Positions 8,474 through 15,693 are shown, counted from the stretch's first letter. The stretch is DNA of 64,000 nucleotides from an uncultured bacterium (GCA_964607515.1 CAZSKU010000003.1:72175-136174), one strand, 5' to 3'. Made by a program: numbers and translations. Notes: generated from the sequence alone by a model not told the origin.

Positions 8474-10669
8474 TCAGCGTATGACCGCCACGCTCCTTAC
8501 CGTATCCACGCCGCTGCCGCTCATCCTCACGAAGTACATGCCGCTGGCCAGCTCCGAGGCGTCCAGGGAAAGGCTGTGGAAGCCCTGTTCAAGGAAGCCC
8601 CGGTGAAGGGTGCTCACCAGCCTGCCCTGAAGGTCGTACACCAGCACCGAAGCCTCCCCCGGCGCATCCGTGGAGAACCTGACCGATGCGCCGGAGGCGC
8701 AGGGGTTCGGGAACACCGCTGCCTCGCCGGAGGTGATGCCGGCCCCGTGGATCCCCGTTCCGTCGTGCTTCCAGAGGGTGATCTCGGCGTTGGCAAAGGT
8801 GAGAAAGCCCTGGTGCCTGTCGCCGCTGAACACGATGTACCAGTCGTCCGTGTGGGGGGCGTAGAACCACACCTCCCCGGCGCTCTGGCCCTGGATCAGC
8901 TCGTAGCAGTCGAACTCCTCCCCGGCCTGGTAAAGCTCCCAGTTGTCCGAATCCACGATGAAGAAATCAGCGGTTCCCCCGGGAATGGGTTCGGCGTACT
9001 CCGACCTGGGGTTGGCGTAGTAGTCCCTCCCGTTCATCAGGTCCGCGGGAAGATCGTAGACCACCTGGATCAGGAACTTCGTCCAGCTTCCCTCGGGCTG
9101 CTCCGTGAGGGGCAGTTCGGGCATCGGCTCGGGGGTGCTCCATTCGAAGAAGTACTCCTGGTCGGGAATGCTGTTCTCTATTATCAGCTCATAGCTGCCG
9201 CCGCCGTAACCTCCCAGGGCGGAGGAGATGTTCAGGTAGTAGTTCTGGCTGTCACCCAGTTCGAAGGTGATCTGTCCGTTCTCGTCGGTCTGCCCCCAGG
9301 TTCCCCGGAAGATCTCGCTGCTCTGCCACCCCTCGCTGGCCACCTGGACGCTGGCGTTGTCCACCGGGACTCCCGACGAGTCGGTCACGGTGACGGTGAG
9401 GTTGCAGAAGTTGGAGTAATAGGCCACGTAGTCGTAGATGAAGCCGTCGTTCCTCCAGTACCATATGCAGCTGCAGTCCTTGCCGCCGGTCATGCGGTCC
9501 TTGTCGTAGGCGCAGTAGTCGTTGCTGAAGGTGTCTATGTACCATCCGTGCCAGGTGCCGTTCCACCAGGCCTGGCACCAGACATGGTCCTCGAGGATGT
9601 CCATCACGCAGACGGTGGGGATCAGGGCCAGCCTTCCCGCAGCGCAGAGCAGGTCCTGGTTCTCGCCGCAGTTGCCGTTGTGCTCATGGGCTATCACGTT
9701 GGGCTGTATGGGTCTGTTGCCGGAGGCCGGGGCGTCTATGACGGCCCGGACCCAGCCGGTGACGATGTCAACGGCGTGAAGGCTGTCGGAGAAGGCCACT
9801 TCGTGGGACCAACCGTAACTCTTGGTCTGCTGGTCCCAGAAGACCTGAACGTTCTGGTTCAGCACTTCCTCCAGAACCGGGTAGCCCGTGTCGTCCATGT
9901 CCCACAGGTACTGCCTCCAGAACTCGTTGTAGACGCTGGAATCGTTCAGGGGCCGCTCGTCGGACACCTTTGGCATGACCACGTAGTGGTAGTAGATCTC
10001 CTTGGGGATCTCCACCCACACCGTGTCGCCGTCCACTATGGTGTTGTACTCGGTGGTGCTGTAGTAGTCCTCGCCGGAGTAGTCCACCACGTTTACGTAG
10101 CTTAGAAGCGGGTCCACATCGTAGATCCCCTGGGCGTTCTCCAGCAGGACCCCCTCGTCCCAGCCTGGGTTGGCCAGGATGGTCCAGGAAAGGTACGCCA
10201 CTGTGAAGGCGAGTTCATCGAAATACGGGGTTCCCTGGTGCGCCAGGAGAAGCGCCCCGTACCGGTCCTGGTTCTCGGGGCTCAGCACTGAGTACTTCCA
10301 GATGAGGTGCTCCTGAAGCCAGCCCGGGGAGATGTCCACGGACTGCTGGGCCTGGGTGGTCAGAGTAATCGCGGGATTCACCGCCAGGTTCTCGTCGAAG
10401 AGTTCGGCCACCACCGGGAAAATGCCGCCCTTGGACGGAACTACGAACCGGCAGCCAACCGTTGCCACCGCCTGGTACTCGGAAGGGGGGTCGAAGGCGG
10501 GAGCAGGGGTTTCCCAGGTCAGCGGGACCGACGGAACCGACGGACGGGAGGTCACCAGGTGCACGGCGCTGCCGGACCGGACCACTGGTTCCATGGGCAC
10601 GGTGATTCCGGGAAGATCCCCGAAGGCCGCCGCTGCGACGGCAAGAACCGCAAACACGACAGGTCTCAT
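8474..10669 (-). CDS. secreted transglutaminase-like cysteine protease with T9SS C-terminal sorting domain
   Basis: Signal peptide MRPVVFAVLAVAAAAFG; transglutaminase-like core Cys/His/Asp (NGNCGENQDLLCAAGRLALIPTVCV...EDHVWCQAW); C-terminus ...AAVFPNPCASGASVRF...ASVLVYDLQGRLVSTL...GMYFVRM resembles a type-IX-secretion CTD. Confidence 0.7.
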   Translation of the reverse strand: MRPVVFAVLAVAAAAFGDLPGITVPMEPVVRSGSAVHLVTSRPSVPSVPLTWETPAPAFDPPSEYQAVATVGCRFVVPSKGGIFPVVAELFDENLAVNPAITLTTQAQQSVDISPGWLQEHLIWKYSVLSPENQDRYGALLLAHQGTPYFDELAFTVAYLSWTILANPGWDEGVLLENAQGIYDVDPLLSYVNVVDYSGEDYYSTTEYNTIVDGDTVWVEIPKEIYYHYVVMPKVSDERPLNDSSVYNEFWRQYLWDMDDTGYPVLEEVLNQNVQVFWDQQTKSYGWSHEVAFSDSLHAVDIVTGWVRAVIDAPASGNRPIQPNVIAHEHNGNCGENQDLLCAAGRLALIPTVCVMDILEDHVWCQAWWNGTWHGWYIDTFSNDYCAYDKDRMTGGKDCSCIWYWRNDGFIYDYVAYYSNFCNLTVTVTDSSGVPVDNASVQVASEGWQSSEIFRGTWGQTDENGQITFELGDSQNYYLNISSALGGYGGGSYELIIENSIPDQEYFFEWSTPEPMPELPLTEQPEGSWTKFLIQVVYDLPADLMNGRDYYANPRSEYAEPIPGGTADFFIVDSDNWELYQAGEEFDCYELIQGQSAGEVWFYAPHTDDWYIVFSGDRHQGFLTFANAEITLWKHDGTGIHGAGITSGEAAVFPNPCASGASVRFSTDAPGEASVLVYDLQGRLVSTLHRGFLEQGFHSLSLDASELASGMYFVRMSGSGVDTVRSVAVIR

Positions 10670-10763
10670 TGCCTTCCCCCTTCAGTTTGGGATATTGTCA
10701 TCCGGTGGGAAGATAGTTTTCGGGAAACCCCGGGTAAAGACTCGGAAAGCCGCCCCTGGAGGG

Positions 10764-11906
10764 TCAGCAGACCTGGGAAACCGCTGATGCCAGGGAGTTT
10801 ATCCCCAGGGGGGCCGGCACCTGGGCGAATTTGAGCTCCTCCGGAGTGTCCGGCGGCGCCGATCCGGATGAAACAACGATCAGGCCGGTGCCTGTCTTCA
10901 GGAGCTGTGCGGCAAGGTTGCCGAACTCCGGAGGGTTGTCCTGCTCCAGGAGGACGAAGAGGAACCTCTCGGGGGTTTCCTCCAGGAGGATCATCCCGCT
11001 GGCCACGCTGTCCACGCTTACCGAGGTGAATCCCAGCATCCTGAGCATTCCCTCGGCGGCGGAATCGCCTCCGGGATCTATACTGAGAACGGTCCTGCGG
11101 ATGGTGGCGCTGAGAGTGCCGGTTTTAGCCTGCACCCGGTTCGGTGCGGATTCCTTCTCCCGGCCGCCGGAAAACACCATGAGTGCCCGATGCCCCCCTC
11201 CACCGATGAGCCGGAGTTCCACTCCGCCCCTCAGGGTGATGTCCCTGGTTTCAGAATCGCTGCCCATGGCCAGGGCCGTCTCCACAAGCCGGGCGGCCTC
11301 CACCGGGGGGAACAGCTCCGATATTGAGCAGCCGGGCTTCGTCTTGCCCTGAAGGAAAGCCGGAAGGACGCCACCGGTTTCCAGGACTATGAGATCCCTC
11401 TCGATCGTGCTGCCTACTATTTCTGCGAAGAGGTAAGCGGTACCGCTTTCCGCCAGGGCCCGGCGGAAGGCAGCAAGTCCGGCTTCCGCCTCACCGGAAA
11501 CTTCTCCCCGGAAGAGGGTGGCGTCGATGATCATCACTATCTCGGCGGTTCTTCCCCGAAGGTCCACCCGCCTGGAGAACGAGAGCACCTTCACCCGGGC
11601 GCCGGCGGTGTCCCTGAGGGTGCCCCGGACCGCTCCGGAGAGGCCCGCCTTGCCCTCCGGGGTAATGCCCGTGCCCGAGTCAGCCAGGGTCTTCCCGAGG
11701 GCTTCTTTCATGGAAACGCCCAGGATGTCCGCGGCCTGATCGTTCATGAACAGCACCTGCCCGCTCTGGGCGTCGCGGACGAAAACCGCCGCGGGAATGT
11801 TGCGCAGAAGCAGGTTCATCCCCTCGTGGTCGGGGGTGAAGGTGATCAGGGTAGGATCGTCAAAAGCCCTGAGGTATCCCAGGAGCTTCTCGGCCCTCTC
11901 GTTCAA
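10764..11906 (-). CDS. PAS-domain protein with C-terminal receiver-like (pseudo-receiver) domain
   Basis: PAS-like N-region (AAVFVRDAQSGQVLFMNDQAADILG); C-terminal alpha/beta region ILLEETPERFLFVLLE...LIVVSS lacks an obvious phospho-acceptor Asp. Confidence 0.5.
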   Translation of the reverse strand: MNERAEKLLGYLRAFDDPTLITFTPDHEGMNLLLRNIPAAVFVRDAQSGQVLFMNDQAADILGVSMKEALGKTLADSGTGITPEGKAGLSGAVRGTLRDTAGARVKVLSFSRRVDLRGRTAEIVMIIDATLFRGEVSGEAEAGLAAFRRALAESGTAYLFAEIVGSTIERDLIVLETGGVLPAFLQGKTKPGCSISELFPPVEAARLVETALAMGSDSETRDITLRGGVELRLIGGGGHRALMVFSGGREKESAPNRVQAKTGTLSATIRRTVLSIDPGGDSAAEGMLRMLGFTSVSVDSVASGMILLEETPERFLFVLLEQDNPPEFGNLAAQLLKTGTGLIVVSSGSAPPDTPEELKFAQVPAPLGINSLASAVSQVC

Positions 11907-11936
11907 ATCGGTCTCCCTCGGTCCTGAAAACTCTTT

Positions 11937-13460
11937 TCACGGGCCCCCGCCGTCAAGCCCCGCCCGCCCCATGCTCAGGGCGGTGGCGGCGGCCAGCCTG
12001 ACCTGTCCGGAGGACATGCGCAGAAAAGGTTTTAAAAAGACACCGGGCCGGACACCCTGGCTCCTGGACAGCCAGATCAGGAACCGGCCGATGCCCCGGG
12101 GATCCAGGGCCGGGTCGCTCCGCTCGAGCCTGGCGGCCACCCGGGCTGCGCAGGAGGCGTCACCGGAGATTCCGCGGGCTTCCAGTACCTGCACAAGTTG
12201 CAGAAACAGCTCTCCCCGGGCCTCCCCGAGCCACCTCCTCAGGACCGCGGCGGTTCCGGGGGAAAGCTGTTCGGGAAAGGCGTCCAGCAGTCGGAGGCCG
12301 TTCCTGCTCAGGTCCGAGGCGGCGAGAGCTTCCAGGGCCTTGAGGTTTTCCTGTGACATTCCTTCCAGACGAATGTTCTCCGGAACGCAGCCCCTTCTCA
12401 GTACCTCCGCCGCCGCTGGATCGCCCCCCCCGGCGCAGAGGGCCCGGTAGGCTTCCCTTGACGGCTCGTAACGGGGATCGCCGCAGAGCCGGGCCAGGAA
12501 GGGGCTCGAATCGGGATCCCCCAGCAGCGCCATCCCCTCCAGGGCCGCCGCCCTCTCCGCCAGGGTGTTCACTGGAACGGCCCGGTTGACCATGGCCGCC
12601 CTCTTCAGCAGGGGAAGACCGGGGAACCATCCCGCCCCTCCTATGCCCCTGAGAACGGCTCTTCGCACCCAGGTGCTGCAGTCCTCGGCCAGGGGAGCTA
12701 TCAGGGGGCCGGCGCCCCTTCCGGAGGCCAGCACCAACCCCTCCACGGCCCGGGCCCTGACGTGGGGGCTCCCGTCCCTGACCGCCAGCAGCAGAGCGGA
12801 TACCGCTTCACTGCCGCCGATCCTGCCCAGTGCCAGGGCGGCGCTCTTCCGGACATTCCAACCGAACCTGCCCAGCAGTATGTCTGCGATACCCTTCACC
12901 GCGCCATTCTCCCGGAGTATTCCAGCGGCTTCCAGCAAAGCCTTCTTGTCCATGTCGGGCAACTCCGGGAAGGAGGGATCGGTGATGAGGGGCGCCAACT
13001 CCCCTGCCACCGGTGTTCCCCTGAGCCGGGACTTCTCCCGTCCCGCCCTCAGGCACAGTTCCTCCACGGTTTCGCGGCGGCCCACGGCCCGGATGAGAAC
13101 CACGGTCAGGTCCAGGAAGGGAAAGAACCGGTATCCGCCGTAACGGTCGAAGGCCTCGATGCCCCCGGCCTCCCGGTCACGATCCTTGTAGAATCCCGGT
13201 GCCAGGGCCCTGAACCGGAGCCTGGCCCCCTCAACCCGGGTTCGGAAAACCCCGTTATCCCCGGCGCAGACGAAATCGTCGCCGCCCACGTGCCCGATGA
13301 AGTCGGGCCTGACCTCTTCCGACAGTATTTCCCCCAGCCTCCTGATGACCAGATCCCCCAGGGAAACCCCGTAATGGTCGTTGAAGGCCTTGAAGCCCGT
13401 GATGTCCAGAAATGCCGCGGTGCCTCCCCTGCGCACCACCCGCCTCTGCAGCTCCCTCAT
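11937..13460 (-). CDS. GGDEF-family (degenerate GGDDF) domain fused to HEAT / PBS-lyase repeats
   Basis: DITGFKAFNDHYG...IGHVGGDDFVCAGD is a diguanylate-cyclase fold with E replaced by D; C-terminal repeats (SEAVSALLLAVRDGSPHVRARAVEGL...) are HEAT/PBS-like; the ATG start at 13460 cuts the conserved LTGLPGN motif, which lies in-frame upstream (see finding). Confidence 0.65.
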   Translation of the reverse strand: MRELQRRVVRRGGTAAFLDITGFKAFNDHYGVSLGDLVIRRLGEILSEEVRPDFIGHVGGDDFVCAGDNGVFRTRVEGARLRFRALAPGFYKDRDREAGGIEAFDRYGGYRFFPFLDLTVVLIRAVGRRETVEELCLRAGREKSRLRGTPVAGELAPLITDPSFPELPDMDKKALLEAAGILRENGAVKGIADILLGRFGWNVRKSAALALGRIGGSEAVSALLLAVRDGSPHVRARAVEGLVLASGRGAGPLIAPLAEDCSTWVRRAVLRGIGGAGWFPGLPLLKRAAMVNRAVPVNTLAERAAALEGMALLGDPDSSPFLARLCGDPRYEPSREAYRALCAGGGDPAAAEVLRRGCVPENIRLEGMSQENLKALEALAASDLSRNGLRLLDAFPEQLSPGTAAVLRRWLGEARGELFLQLVQVLEARGISGDASCAARVAARLERSDPALDPRGIGRFLIWLSRSQGVRPGVFLKPFLRMSSGQVRLAAATALSMGRAGLDGGGP

Positions 13461-13573
13461 GATGGAGCTGTTCCCGGGAAGTCCGGTGAGGGGGTTACGG
13501 TCCGACGCCAGGGTTCGACCTCCCTGTAACTCGATGATGCAAGCCGATTCTTTACATAGGAACGAAAATAATG

Positions 13574-14521
13574 TCAGTCAAGGGGGGCGCAGGTTGGGCC
13601 CCCGGACAGCAGACAGTCCAGCACGTCGCCCAGCACCACTATCCCCCCGGGCTGGCCCCGGTCGTCCAGCACCACGGCGGCTCCAGCGCCCGATCGCCAC
13701 ATGTCCAGGAGCACCTTCAGGGGCACCGAGTCCTCGGGGAACGCCGGTATGCCCGTGAGCATCCTGCCGGGGTTCCAGGAACCCGTACTCTTCAGCACCG
13801 CCCTGCTTTCGAGCACTCCAGAGAGGGGTCTGCCCTCCCCCTCAATCACCAGCAGGAAATCGGACCCGGTCTCGATGATCCTCTGCACCGCCTGTTGTCG
13901 AGACGCTCCGAGGGTTATCCGCGGGAAGTCGGACACCGGTCTGGCATGGAAGCGTATACTCTTCTCTCCCAGCTCTATGGCATCCCAGGCTCTTCTTCCC
14001 TCGGATCCGCCGGACATCTCCAGAAGGCTTCTGACCTCTCCCCGGCTCTCGAAGAGCCTGTTCACCGAAGGGCGGCCGGCGATGATCCGGGAGATGAACC
14101 CAGCCGATGCAATGAGCGGGAAGAACAGAACCCTCAGAACCACCAGCGCCGGGGCCAGCGGAGGGGTCAGGGAATCCGCCCTGAGAAGGGCGTTCTGCTT
14201 GGGAACGATCTCCGCGAAGACCAGCAGGAACGACGCTGTGACGACCACCGAAAGGGTCTCGTAGCCGGGGCTGAGCCGGGCGAACCAACCGGAACTGAGG
14301 CTCGAGGCAAGGATGACCCCCACGTTGGTTCCGACCAGGGTGGTGGACAGGTAGCGGGAGGGGTCATTCAAAAACCATGAGGCCAGTTTCGCCAGCCGGT
14401 GTCCCGACTGGGAGGCCGCGGCGATCCTGATCCTTCCAGCGGCGGAATAGGCGGTCTCGGTGGCGTTGCACACCATGGACAGAAGCACGGCCAGTATGAA
14501 CGCCACTATCTCCCCGGTCAT
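13574..14521 (-). CDS. CNNM/CorC/HlyC-family transporter (DUF21 + CBS pair), paralog 1
   Basis: N-terminal DUF21 with SMVCNATETAY and FAEIVPK, then CBS pair; real start at MTGEIVAF (ATG 14519-14521) overlapping the upstream paralog's stop as ATGA; the ORF-track extension to 15811 is wrong-frame junk. Confidence 0.75.
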   Translation of the reverse strand: MTGEIVAFILAVLLSMVCNATETAYSAAGRIRIAAASQSGHRLAKLASWFLNDPSRYLSTTLVGTNVGVILASSLSSGWFARLSPGYETLSVVVTASFLLVFAEIVPKQNALLRADSLTPPLAPALVVLRVLFFPLIASAGFISRIIAGRPSVNRLFESRGEVRSLLEMSGGSEGRRAWDAIELGEKSIRFHARPVSDFPRITLGASRQQAVQRIIETGSDFLLVIEGEGRPLSGVLESRAVLKSTGSWNPGRMLTGIPAFPEDSVPLKVLLDMWRSGAGAAVVLDDRGQPGGIVVLGDVLDCLLSGGPTCAPLD

Positions 14522-15693
14522 TCCTCCACCCTCCGGACCAGGATGTGGTTCACCCTCCCGGGCGAGGCCGACTCCACCCTGAACTCCAGCCCCCCGGACC
14601 TGAAGCTTTCCCCGGTCCCGGGTATCCTGCCGGATATCTCCTCCACGTACCCGCCGCAGGACTCCGCCCACCGGGCGTCTGGAGTTTCTCCGACGAGACG
14701 GCCCAGGCTTTCCAGCGAGAGCCCCGCGGGCACGAGGTACCCGTCCCGGCGCCTTCTCACACCGGGAGGCATGAGCCCTCCGGCCGGGTCGAAAACGGCC
14801 CTGGCCAGCACGTCGTTCTCCGTCAGGATGCCGCTCCAGTCGCCGTACTCGTCCACCACTACCCCGAGGCCGCCGTCGCTCTTCCTCAGATCCTTCAGAG
14901 CCTTGTCGAGAGGCGCAGTCTCGGGAAAAAAGCACACCTCCCTGATCTCGAGTTTTTCCAGACCCAGCAGGTCCCTCACCAGGGTCATCCCCAGGATCTC
15001 CTCCCCGGGACCCCGCACCAGGGGGTAGCGCATGAACGGGTTGGACCTGGCCTCCGCCTGCATCCTGGCCAGGCTCCAATCCATTCGCATCACAACTACT
15101 TCGCGCCTGGGGACCATGACGCTCTGGCACTGCCGGTCGCTCAGGGAGAGCACAGCCCCGGCCACCAGCGCTTCCTCCCCGACTACTCCGTCCCCCCTGG
15201 CCATCTCCACCAGGGTGATTATCTCGTTCCTGTTCAGATGTCTTCCGGTTTCCGTGCGCAGCGACATCCTTTCCAGAAGCCTTGTCACCGGCGCCGCGGC
15301 GAGGGTCACGGGCCGGATCAGGGGCGCCGCAGACAGGGCCCACCTCTCGTTGTTGTGGCGGGCCAGGGTCTTTGGCGTGATCTCGCCCAGCACCAGAAGG
15401 ATGAAGGTCATTATCAGCACGCCCAGCCCGAATCCCAGGGGACCCGGAAAGAGGGCCCTGGTGACGGAGGCGCTGACGGTCCCTATGGCCACGTTCACCA
15501 GGGTGTTGCCCATGAGAACCCCGGACAGAAGCCTGCCCGGGTGGGACAGGATCCGGAGCGCCCTGCGGCCCTTTTCTCCGGCGGAGAGCCTCTGTTTCTG
15601 CACCCCGTCCAGGCTGAAGAAAGCCGTCTCCGTGCCGCTGAAGAAGGCGGACAGCGCCAGGAGAACCAGAAGAAGGAGAGCGTCCGTCAGAGT
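14518..15693 (-). CDS. CNNM/CorC/HlyC-family transporter (DUF21 + CBS pair + CorC_HlyC C-domain), paralog 2
   Basis: LLLLVLLALSAFFSGTETAFFSL...GEITPK, CBS pair, C-terminal transporter-associated domain; no ATG/GTG/TTG upstream of the first TM helix, so the 5' end is approximate (possible CTG at 15688-15690). Confidence 0.65.
   Translation of the reverse strand, partial: TLTDALLLLVLLALSAFFSGTETAFFSLDGVQKQRLSAGEKGRRALRILSHPGRLLSGVLMGNTLVNVAIGTVSASVTRALFPGPLGFGLGVLIMTFILLVLGEITPKTLARHNNERWALSAAPLIRPVTLAAAPVTRLLERMSLRTETGRHLNRNEIITLVEMARGDGVVGEEALVAGAVLSLSDRQCQSVMVPRREVVVMRMDWSLARMQAEARSNPFMRYPLVRGPGEEILGMTLVRDLLGLEKLEIREVCFFPETAPLDKALKDLRKSDGGLGVVVDEYGDWSGILTENDVLARAVFDPAGGLMPPGVRRRRDGYLVPAGLSLESLGRLVGETPDARWAESCGGYVEEISGRIPGTGESFRSGGLEFRVESASPGRVNHILVRRVEE

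Follow-up and report, generated by a model that had tools for sequence, protein, structure and literature searches.

Where does translation begin in a gene whose reading frame offers no canonical start codon ahead of its conserved domain? The question is raised by a GGDEF-HEAT gene, encoding a GGDEF-family domain fused to HEAT repeats, on the minus strand of a 64,000-nucleotide stretch of DNA from an uncultured bacterium (GCA_964607515.1 CAZSKU010000003.1:72175-136174), hereafter referred to as the window. The initial annotation of this locus offered several options, namely initiation at an upstream CTG, 5' truncation and a frameshift. Comparison with orthologs strongly supports the first: very probably, the gene is intact and encodes a 524-residue protein starting at CTG 13511-13509. 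The elements of the start region, counted from the first letter of the window, are as follows.

11937..13511, minus strand: GGDEF(GGDDF)-HEAT coding sequence as revised, 524 codons, from the candidate CTG 13511-13509 to the stop TGA 11939-11937
13509..13511, minus strand: candidate CTG start codon, at a position matching the GTG/TTG starts of orthologs
13519..13524, minus strand: Shine-Dalgarno site GGGAGG, 7 nucleotides upstream of the CTG
13458..13460, minus strand: ATG used in public gene calls (507-residue product), predicted to be internal Met18 of the revised protein
13578..13580, minus strand: in-frame TGA closing the GGDEF-HEAT frame upstream, overlapping the end of the CNNM gene (stop 13576-13574) in another frame

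Statements made earlier about the sequence itself all hold. The minus-strand frame from 13580 to 11937 consists of the TGA (13580-13578) followed by 547 open codons, with no ATG, GTG or TTG in frame between this TGA and the ATG at 13460-13458, and GGGAGG (13524-13519), the spacer TCGAACC (13518-12) and CTG (13511-13509) follow one another as described. The spacing of 7 nucleotides lies inside the 5-9 nucleotide range, and there is no Shine-Dalgarno site ahead of ATG 13460. The 39 triplets preceding that ATG translate as LTLFSFLCKESACIIELQGGRTLASDRNPLTGLPGNSSI, and the frame directly upstream of it reads ...RTLASDRNPLTGLPGNSSI-M. Judged by its sequence, the gene has every feature expected of a CTG start.

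In the mechanism that we propose, GGGAGG would position the ribosome on CTG 13511-13509, a codon that the initiator tRNA reads (as CUG) with a first-base mismatch. The product would be formylmethionine (fMet)-A-S-D-R-N-P-L-T-G-L-P-G-N..., comprising the whole GGDEF fold and then the HEAT repeats, and ATG 13460 would be an ordinary internal methionine codon. A CTG start predicts the N-terminus (f)M-ASDRNPLTGLPGNSSIMR or ASDRNPLTGLPGNSSIMR, whereas an ATG start predicts MRELQR. RNA folding of positions 13560-13440 gave z = -0.04 relative to shuffled sequences, with no structure adding regulation. A CAGGG/CCCUG hairpin was considered as a start feature and rejected: it is present in the closest relatives of the window gene (the window clade), but it is not kept in the second CTG clade described below.

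Profile and structure comparisons place the beginning of the GGDEF domain upstream of the ATG, as the initial annotation had claimed. In the stop-to-stop translation, the Pfam GGDEF match (PF00990, 37.9 bits, cut-off 23.8, covering profile positions 5-85 of 161 only) opens at P29, which lies 11 residues ahead of the methionine encoded by the ATG, and TIGR00254 (42.7 bits, cut-off 37.4) agrees with this upstream start. A search of solved structures aligned the Thermotoga diguanylate cyclase 4URQ with the protein from N6-P-L-T-G-L-P onwards. With 105 relatives as input, AlphaFold2 modelled the 524-residue protein at a mean predicted local distance difference test score (pLDDT) of 94.3, with 84-97 for the first 20 residues. 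In Foldseek searches, residues ~1-170 of this model (~170 columns) match the GGDEF domains of WspR, PleD, DgcZ, SadC and DgcB with template modelling scores of 0.65-0.70 on target. According to the model, the catalytic domain has a complete palm-like GGDEF fold, from which initiation at the ATG would remove the first strand, the turn and the beginning of the first helix. The domains are arranged as follows.

13017..13499, minus strand: GGDEF-fold domain, residues ~5-165 of 524, as defined by Pfam, TIGR00254, AlphaFold2 and Foldseek
13286-13272, minus strand: GGDDF (GGC GGC GAC GAT TTC), the active-site loop
11970..12956, minus strand: HEAT/alpha-solenoid region, residues ~186-514, as defined by PF13646, the model and Foldseek

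Orthologs show where coding constraint begins. Homologs of the window protein come from Candidatus Fermentibacteria (Hyd24-12; Sabulitectum, Aegiribacteria, Fermentibacter). One of the closest loci, an independent Logan assembly (L003), matches the window at every position of the upstream region, so that a local assembly error is ruled out. Two others, L001 and L002 (87% and 84% protein identity), also lack a canonical start and have GGGAGG and CTG unchanged; the CTG is thus invariant in the window, L001, L002 and L003. Within this window clade the Shine-Dalgarno hexamer is invariant as well, and 3 of the 7 spacer positions vary. The 37 codons from the CTG on have accumulated 11 synonymous and 3 non-synonymous changes (variable sites by codon position, 4/1/11), all 5 changes within codons 1-16 being synonymous, whereas the 22 in-frame triplets upstream of the CTG show 3 synonymous and 10 non-synonymous changes (9/5/7). 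The substitution pattern thus switches at the CTG, which, together with the invariant hexamer, indicates that coding constraint begins there.

These results bear directly on the possibility that translation starts at ATG 13460, giving a 507-residue product without LTGLPGN and leaving the upstream similarity as a relic. This ATG is the first canonical start in the frame, and the database entry P0001 is called from it, as would be expected because gene callers do not allow CTG. However, its equivalent is AGA in L001 and AGG in L002 and it is therefore not a conserved start, nor does a Shine-Dalgarno site precede it. The 17 codons upstream of it are under purifying selection, as seen from the changes in codons 1-16, and belong to the GGDEF fold, with LTGLPGN (nearly) invariant in an alignment of 105 sequences; the ASDRNPLTGLPGNSSI segment is encoded by the CTG-started form and lies outside the 507-residue product. 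The initial annotation had proposed to ask where orthologs start, and the answer is the opposite of a uniform ATG start without this segment: ATG 13460 is not conserved, and all orthologs encode LTGLPGN. We see a very slim chance that the ATG is the true start. The public calls found for members of this clade are N-terminally short in the same way, since callers picked the next downstream ATG or GTG: P0001, P0002, P0003, P0009 and P0013 have 507, 499, 500, 500 and 476 residues, respectively, versus ~524-527.

Other orthologs carry either the CTG or a canonical start codon at the same place. A second clade (L005, L006, L007 and L209-L212; ~65% identity) has GGGAGG-TAGT(A/G)CC-CTG nine codons before LTGLPGN, and one of its members, L005, has no canonical alternative start at all. 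The equivalent place, as judged from the Shine-Dalgarno site and LTGLPGN, carries GGAAGG-N6-GTG GCG in L008, where the window has CTG GCG, and GGGAGG-N5-TTG in L088; the Shine-Dalgarno site is GGGAGG or GGAAGG throughout L005-L008 and L088. Still more distant short orthologs carry an ATG, GTG or TTG six codons before LTGLPGN. Altogether, at least six further genomes share the start-less GGGAGG-CTG layout. A distance tree separates the two CTG clades, with the GTG/TTG pair nested between them; as these clades are not sisters, CTG is either long-lived in this family or has arisen twice.

A plausible origin for this variation is found in the two forms of the family. The long form (650-690 residues) has an extra N-terminal domain of ~110-130 residues, whereas the short form, to which the window protein belongs, begins a few residues before LTGLPGN. 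Both forms are encoded directly downstream of a CNNM gene, and the short forms are always followed by a gene for a 380-residue PAS protein. The common CNNM-adjacent position argues that long and short forms are orthologs at one locus and that, most simply, the short form lost the N-terminal domain that longer orthologs seem to have kept. Such a loss would leave the start codon at the edge of the GGDEF domain, with different outcomes (ATG, GTG, TTG or CTG) in different lineages.

Several observations weigh against a CTG start. The arrangement GGGAGG-N7-CTG occurs 2 times in the window versus 2.6 expected by chance; the motif alone therefore proves nothing, and what gives it weight is where it lies and how well it is conserved. 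Some members of the second clade (L006, L007, L209 and L212) have an in-frame ATG 12 codons upstream of the CTG, so that the CTG is not the sole option there. The distance tree was built without bootstrap. CUG is inefficient in Escherichia coli, where it initiates at 1-2% of the AUG level, and the host here is a member of Fermentibacteria; on the supporting side, CTG is found among annotated bacterial starts (bioRxiv 10.1101/063800). Finally, in the locus L004, GGGAGG-N7-ATG opens a 15-codon open reading frame that is one base out of the GGDEF frame.

Two of these cases have features of their own. In the second clade, the stretch between the upstream ATG and the CTG changes non-synonymously. 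Most of L006, L007 and L209-L212 have the in-frame ATG ~36 nucleotides before the CTG, right after the TATGTAAAGA block (TATGTAAAGAATG), and it is absent in L005; this ATG could be a leaderless alternative start, if transcription begins there. In L004 (L004:3930-4036; CAWJQI010000005.1, Candidatus Fermentibacteria metagenome-assembled genome MFD03899.bin.2.31) an insertion of 30 nucleotides separates the Shine-Dalgarno site from the homologous CCCTG. With one C fewer in its CCCC run, L004 would have a normal ATG-started gene (MNTTFIRACSPVTQSDRNPLTGLPGN), so that the arrangement could be either a homopolymer error in a long-read assembly or a real upstream open reading frame.

The L004 locus, where a change of 1 nucleotide would join an ATG preceded by a Shine-Dalgarno site to the gene, and the lack of a canonical start in the window gene itself might also be taken as signs of damage, that is, of a 5'-truncated or frameshifted pseudogene or of an assembly error that removed a canonical start. 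Against this, the upstream region is identical in the independently assembled L003, and L001, L002, L005 and others, which come from different samples and assemblers, likewise have no canonical start but a conserved Shine-Dalgarno site and CTG. Furthermore, the 524-codon frame is clean, its substitutions are of the coding type, its structure model is confident, and the 62-nucleotide intergenic region holds no ATG or GTG in another frame that has a Shine-Dalgarno site. Truncation and assembly error are effectively excluded by the identity of L003 and by the other genomes sharing the layout, and the frameshift reading is effectively excluded as well. We give next to no weight to a damaged gene.

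Other upstream codons deserve consideration as well. ATC 13535-13533, ATC 13538-13536 and CTG 13577-13575 are all in frame, and ATC 13535 is conserved within the window clade; translation might start at one of them or reach the frame by recoding from the CNNM gene. However, none of the three is preceded by a Shine-Dalgarno site, the in-frame triplets between them and CTG 13511 change mostly non-synonymously, and the second CTG clade has none of them at the corresponding site. Recoding is opposed by the frame of the CNNM stop, which differs from that of the GGDEF-HEAT gene, and by the AT-rich block after this stop, which is conserved at the DNA level and resembles a promoter, not coding sequence. 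A recoded TGA or a CNNM fusion was rejected on the same grounds, and we regard the whole set of upstream alternatives as highly unlikely.

Initiation at CTG 13511-13509 would have consequences for expression. CUG is a weak initiator, so the GGDEF-HEAT protein is probably kept scarce by the CTG, which in combination with an optimal Shine-Dalgarno site is likely to give low, steady expression of a signalling protein. We infer that the weak codon was selected for, limiting expression, rather than merely tolerated. Within the window the CTG start looks isolated: a crude survey based on G+C content at third codon positions found no other gene with a Shine-Dalgarno site and CTG before its first canonical start among the ~45 genes of the 64 kb.

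What does the gene encode? The GGDDF in place of GGDEF (13286-13272) and the fusion to HEAT repeats (HEAT_2, 72.8 bits) were correctly recognized in the initial annotation, which took the former as the mark of a likely scaffold rather than an active cyclase. The alignment with 105 relatives, which includes proteobacterial proteins with the same domain type fused to receiver, CBS or EAL-CBS modules, gives no support to this view. G76-G77-D78-D79-F80, H74, D36, F40, K41, D45, G48 and G52 are invariant in it, and N44, D53 and LTGLPGN are at least 90% conserved. In the 4URQ alignment, D36, N44 and D53 align with the corresponding residues at positions that we take, from the PleD literature, to bind metal and guanine. 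With GGDDF and these residues maintained across such a wide subfamily, the notion of a decayed scaffold is unsupported. The signature of active cyclases, [G/A/S]G[D/E]E[F/Y], is not matched, GGDDF standing in its place. Proteins with this variant have been studied elsewhere: Geobacter GSU1937 is a GGDDF enzyme and an active Hypr GGDEF protein, whereas the Pseudomonas aeruginosa GGDDF/EAL protein PA3258 showed no cyclase phenotype (PMC8835794). On the basis of the conserved residues and the modelled fold, we consider the GGDEF-type domain of the window protein to be nucleotide-binding and possibly catalytic.

The proteobacterial relatives belong to a GGDEF subfamily widespread among Proteobacteria (L029-L083, from Dyella, Vogesella, Ectothiorhodospira, Thioalkalivibrio, Rubrivivax and others, and P0107-P0120), 40-46% identical to the window's GGDEF domain and fused to receiver, CBS or EAL-CBS modules. 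Its motifs are NPLTGLPGN, FK(A/P)FNDxYG, GHVGGDDF and G(G/S)I-x3-R-x-G, the last of which reads GGIExxDRxG in the Fermentibacteria proteins. The Halomonas homolog P0120 has an EAL-CBS-GGDDF layout, which presumably resembles that of PA3258. As a separate family, the H-x-GGDDF subfamily is apparently undescribed.

The C-terminal part of the window protein matches HEAT_2 (PF13646; cut-off 27.7 bits) in 4 stretches and forms helical repeats in the AlphaFold2 model, for which Foldseek finds alphaRep, designed HEAT proteins and CpcE/F lyases. The simplest reading of the repeats is a platform for binding proteins, and the HEAT solenoid, perhaps together with the PAS protein, would make the partner contacts of the GGDEF domain.

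The neighbourhood of the gene consists of the following further elements.

10764..11906, minus strand: PAS gene, 380 residues, same operon, TTG start 11906-11904 after GAGGGAG
13574..14521, minus strand: CNNM/DUF21 membrane protein, 315 residues, without CorC_HlyC, Pfam CNNM 93.2 bits
13548..13581, minus strand: predicted promoter-like block TTGACT - 17 nucleotides - TATGTA AAGAA, conserved intergenic DNA

Both genes named in the initial annotation, GGDEF-HEAT and PAS, are present, but their order was reversed: on the coding strand the GGDEF-HEAT gene (13511 to 11937) precedes the PAS gene (11906 to 10764). Downstream of the operon, at 8474-10669 on the minus strand, the window encodes a 731-residue secreted protein with a C-terminal Por_Secre_tail (type IX secretion), as do L001 and L003; this protein fits the placement of the organism in the Fibrobacteres-Chlorobi-Bacteroidetes (FCB) group.

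Upstream of the GGDEF-HEAT gene there are tandem CNNM/DUF21 genes (~14518-15603 and 13574-14521, both on the minus strand, with a 4-nucleotide overlap), the first with and the second without CorC_HlyC. A CNNM neighbour is found upstream of the GGDEF-HEAT gene in L001-L028 and L084-L088. The CNNM pair followed by the GGDEF-HEAT gene recurs in each of the three close loci with gene calls over this region (L001-L003) and in L086, and across Fermentibacteria, long-form species included, at least an adjacent CNNM gene precedes the GGDEF-HEAT gene. This conserved synteny hints at a functional link of metal-ion transport with the signalling module.

In a genome of 65% G+C, the 62 nucleotides between the CNNM stop and the CTG are AT-rich. 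A block TTGACT - 17 nucleotides - TATGTAAAGAA is conserved at the DNA level in the window, L001, L002, L005-L008, L084 and L088, where most other intergenic positions differ. All 10 aligned orthologous loci share the TATGTAAA core, apart from one base in L006, and the TTGAC box is kept in 8 of the 9 loci covering it (ATGAC in L006). The GGDEF-HEAT/PAS operon is probably transcribed from this block, which would place the 5' end of the transcript ~7 nucleotides after TATGTA, near 13546; an ATG-TAA start-stop pair inside the block has no Shine-Dalgarno site. A strict sigma-70 scan of 10600-13800 gave no match, with TTGACT-17-TATGTA failing the tool's last-base rule for the second hexamer. Among the matches listed for the metagenome pattern TATGTAAAGAA-N(15-40)-GGGAGGT, none of the 120 loci encodes the GGDEF-HEAT family.

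The PAS protein was described earlier as a PAS/pseudo-receiver protein, and the first half of this description stands. The PAS domain is well above the cut-offs (PAS PF00989, 36.2 bits versus 22.6; PAS_8, 34.5 versus 21.8), and a profile search against PDB matches the N-terminus to PAS kinase and the PAS domains of BvgS. The second half fared less well. The C-terminal ~115 residues show an alternating strand/helix pattern, and a comparison with five receiver domains by hhalign gave a weak match (P 6.6e-4, probability 27%, 84 columns; control segment, P 0.13), with no receiver found in this region by Pfam or NCBIfam at E <= 0.1 or by the PDB profile search. The candidate beta3 strand reads FVLLEQ / FVVCEE and has no Lys-Pro, as judged by eye in an insecure alignment register. 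The AlphaFold2 model of the protein (pLDDT 48, only 9 close homologs in the database) is too poor to use. A pseudo-receiver is therefore plausible but weakly supported. The N-terminal domain of the long orthologs of the GGDEF-HEAT protein is also weakly receiver-like (P 1.8e-4). A relationship between this domain and the PAS protein C-terminus was considered and found unsupported (hhalign P 0.023).

The PAS gene, too, has a weak start codon. Its TTG start is kept in 9 of 11 close orthologs, and more distant relatives use ATG. Together with the CTG of the GGDEF-HEAT gene, this suggests weak initiation codons for both members of the operon in the window clade. In some relatives the PAS start overlaps the GGDEF-HEAT stop, which points to coupled translation.

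A broader, speculative reading, which we regard as doubtful, would combine these trends. The CTG, along with the TTG of the PAS gene, might be kept by selection so that the two-gene module is produced at very low or condition-dependent levels in several lineages of Fermentibacteria. In the same reading, the group marked by H-x-GGDDF, LTGLPGN and GGIExxDR, which is also present in Proteobacteria fused to receiver, CBS and EAL-CBS modules, might be a distinct active branch of GGDEF proteins, with a product or regulation unlike that of classical diguanylate cyclases and with the HEAT repeats as a partner-binding or dimerising element.

The revised start has practical consequences. It corrects an annotation in which public calls drop 17 or more residues, among them the catalytic domain's first strand and turn; constructs built on these short calls would probably yield misfolded protein. 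A CTG start maintained over long divergence provides a test case for gene callers, in which CTG is normally forbidden, and for start-codon turnover after domain loss. The analysis also flags an uncharacterised GGDEF subfamily in which GGDDF is invariant, not decayed. It does not change the current understanding of translation or of cyclic diguanylate (c-di-GMP) signalling.

How does this system compare with known ones? The HEAT region shares its repeat fold and its Pfam HEAT_2/HEAT_PBS matches with HEAT/PBS-lyase alpha-solenoids such as CpcE/F, NblB and alphaRep, and it differs from the CpcE/F-type lyases in having no lyase-specific features (NCBIfam score for CpcF, 16.6 versus a cut-off of 220). 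With PleD, WspR, DgcZ and Thermotoga TM1788/4URQ, the GGDEF domain has in common the ~170-residue fold, xLTGLPxN, D36, N44, D53 and the position of the GG[DE]xF loop. It departs from these canonical cyclases in having H-x-GGDDF, not R-x-GG[DE]EF, with a His replacing the Arg two residues before GG; it has no RxxD inhibitory site and no N-terminal sensor or dimerising stalk, it is fused to HEAT repeats at its C-terminus, and its second half, with the conserved GGIExxDRxG hairpin, is too diverged for Pfam. GSU1937 and PA3258 have the same GGDDF variant of the active-site loop, but GSU1937 is a membrane-anchored Hypr enzyme, whereas the window family is soluble, HEAT-fused and restricted to Fermentibacteria.

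For the start codon, the classic functional near-cognate case is infC, which starts with AUU; to our knowledge, feedback logic of the infC/IF3 type is neither known nor suggested for the window gene. Genes with near-cognate starts (CUG, AUU, AUC, AUA; Hecht et al., bioRxiv 10.1101/063800) share with the window gene a strong, optimally spaced Shine-Dalgarno site and a codon that is off AUG at its first base. Weak initiation is expected in both, and standard gene callers miss both. The window gene is distinguished by being known from sequence alone and by a CTG that is conserved in at least two clades of an uncultured phylum and alignable to GTG, TTG and ATG in its relatives. Its novelty is modest: the CTG start predicted here adds a new, conserved case to a type of start codon already known to be rare, and does not amount to a novel system.

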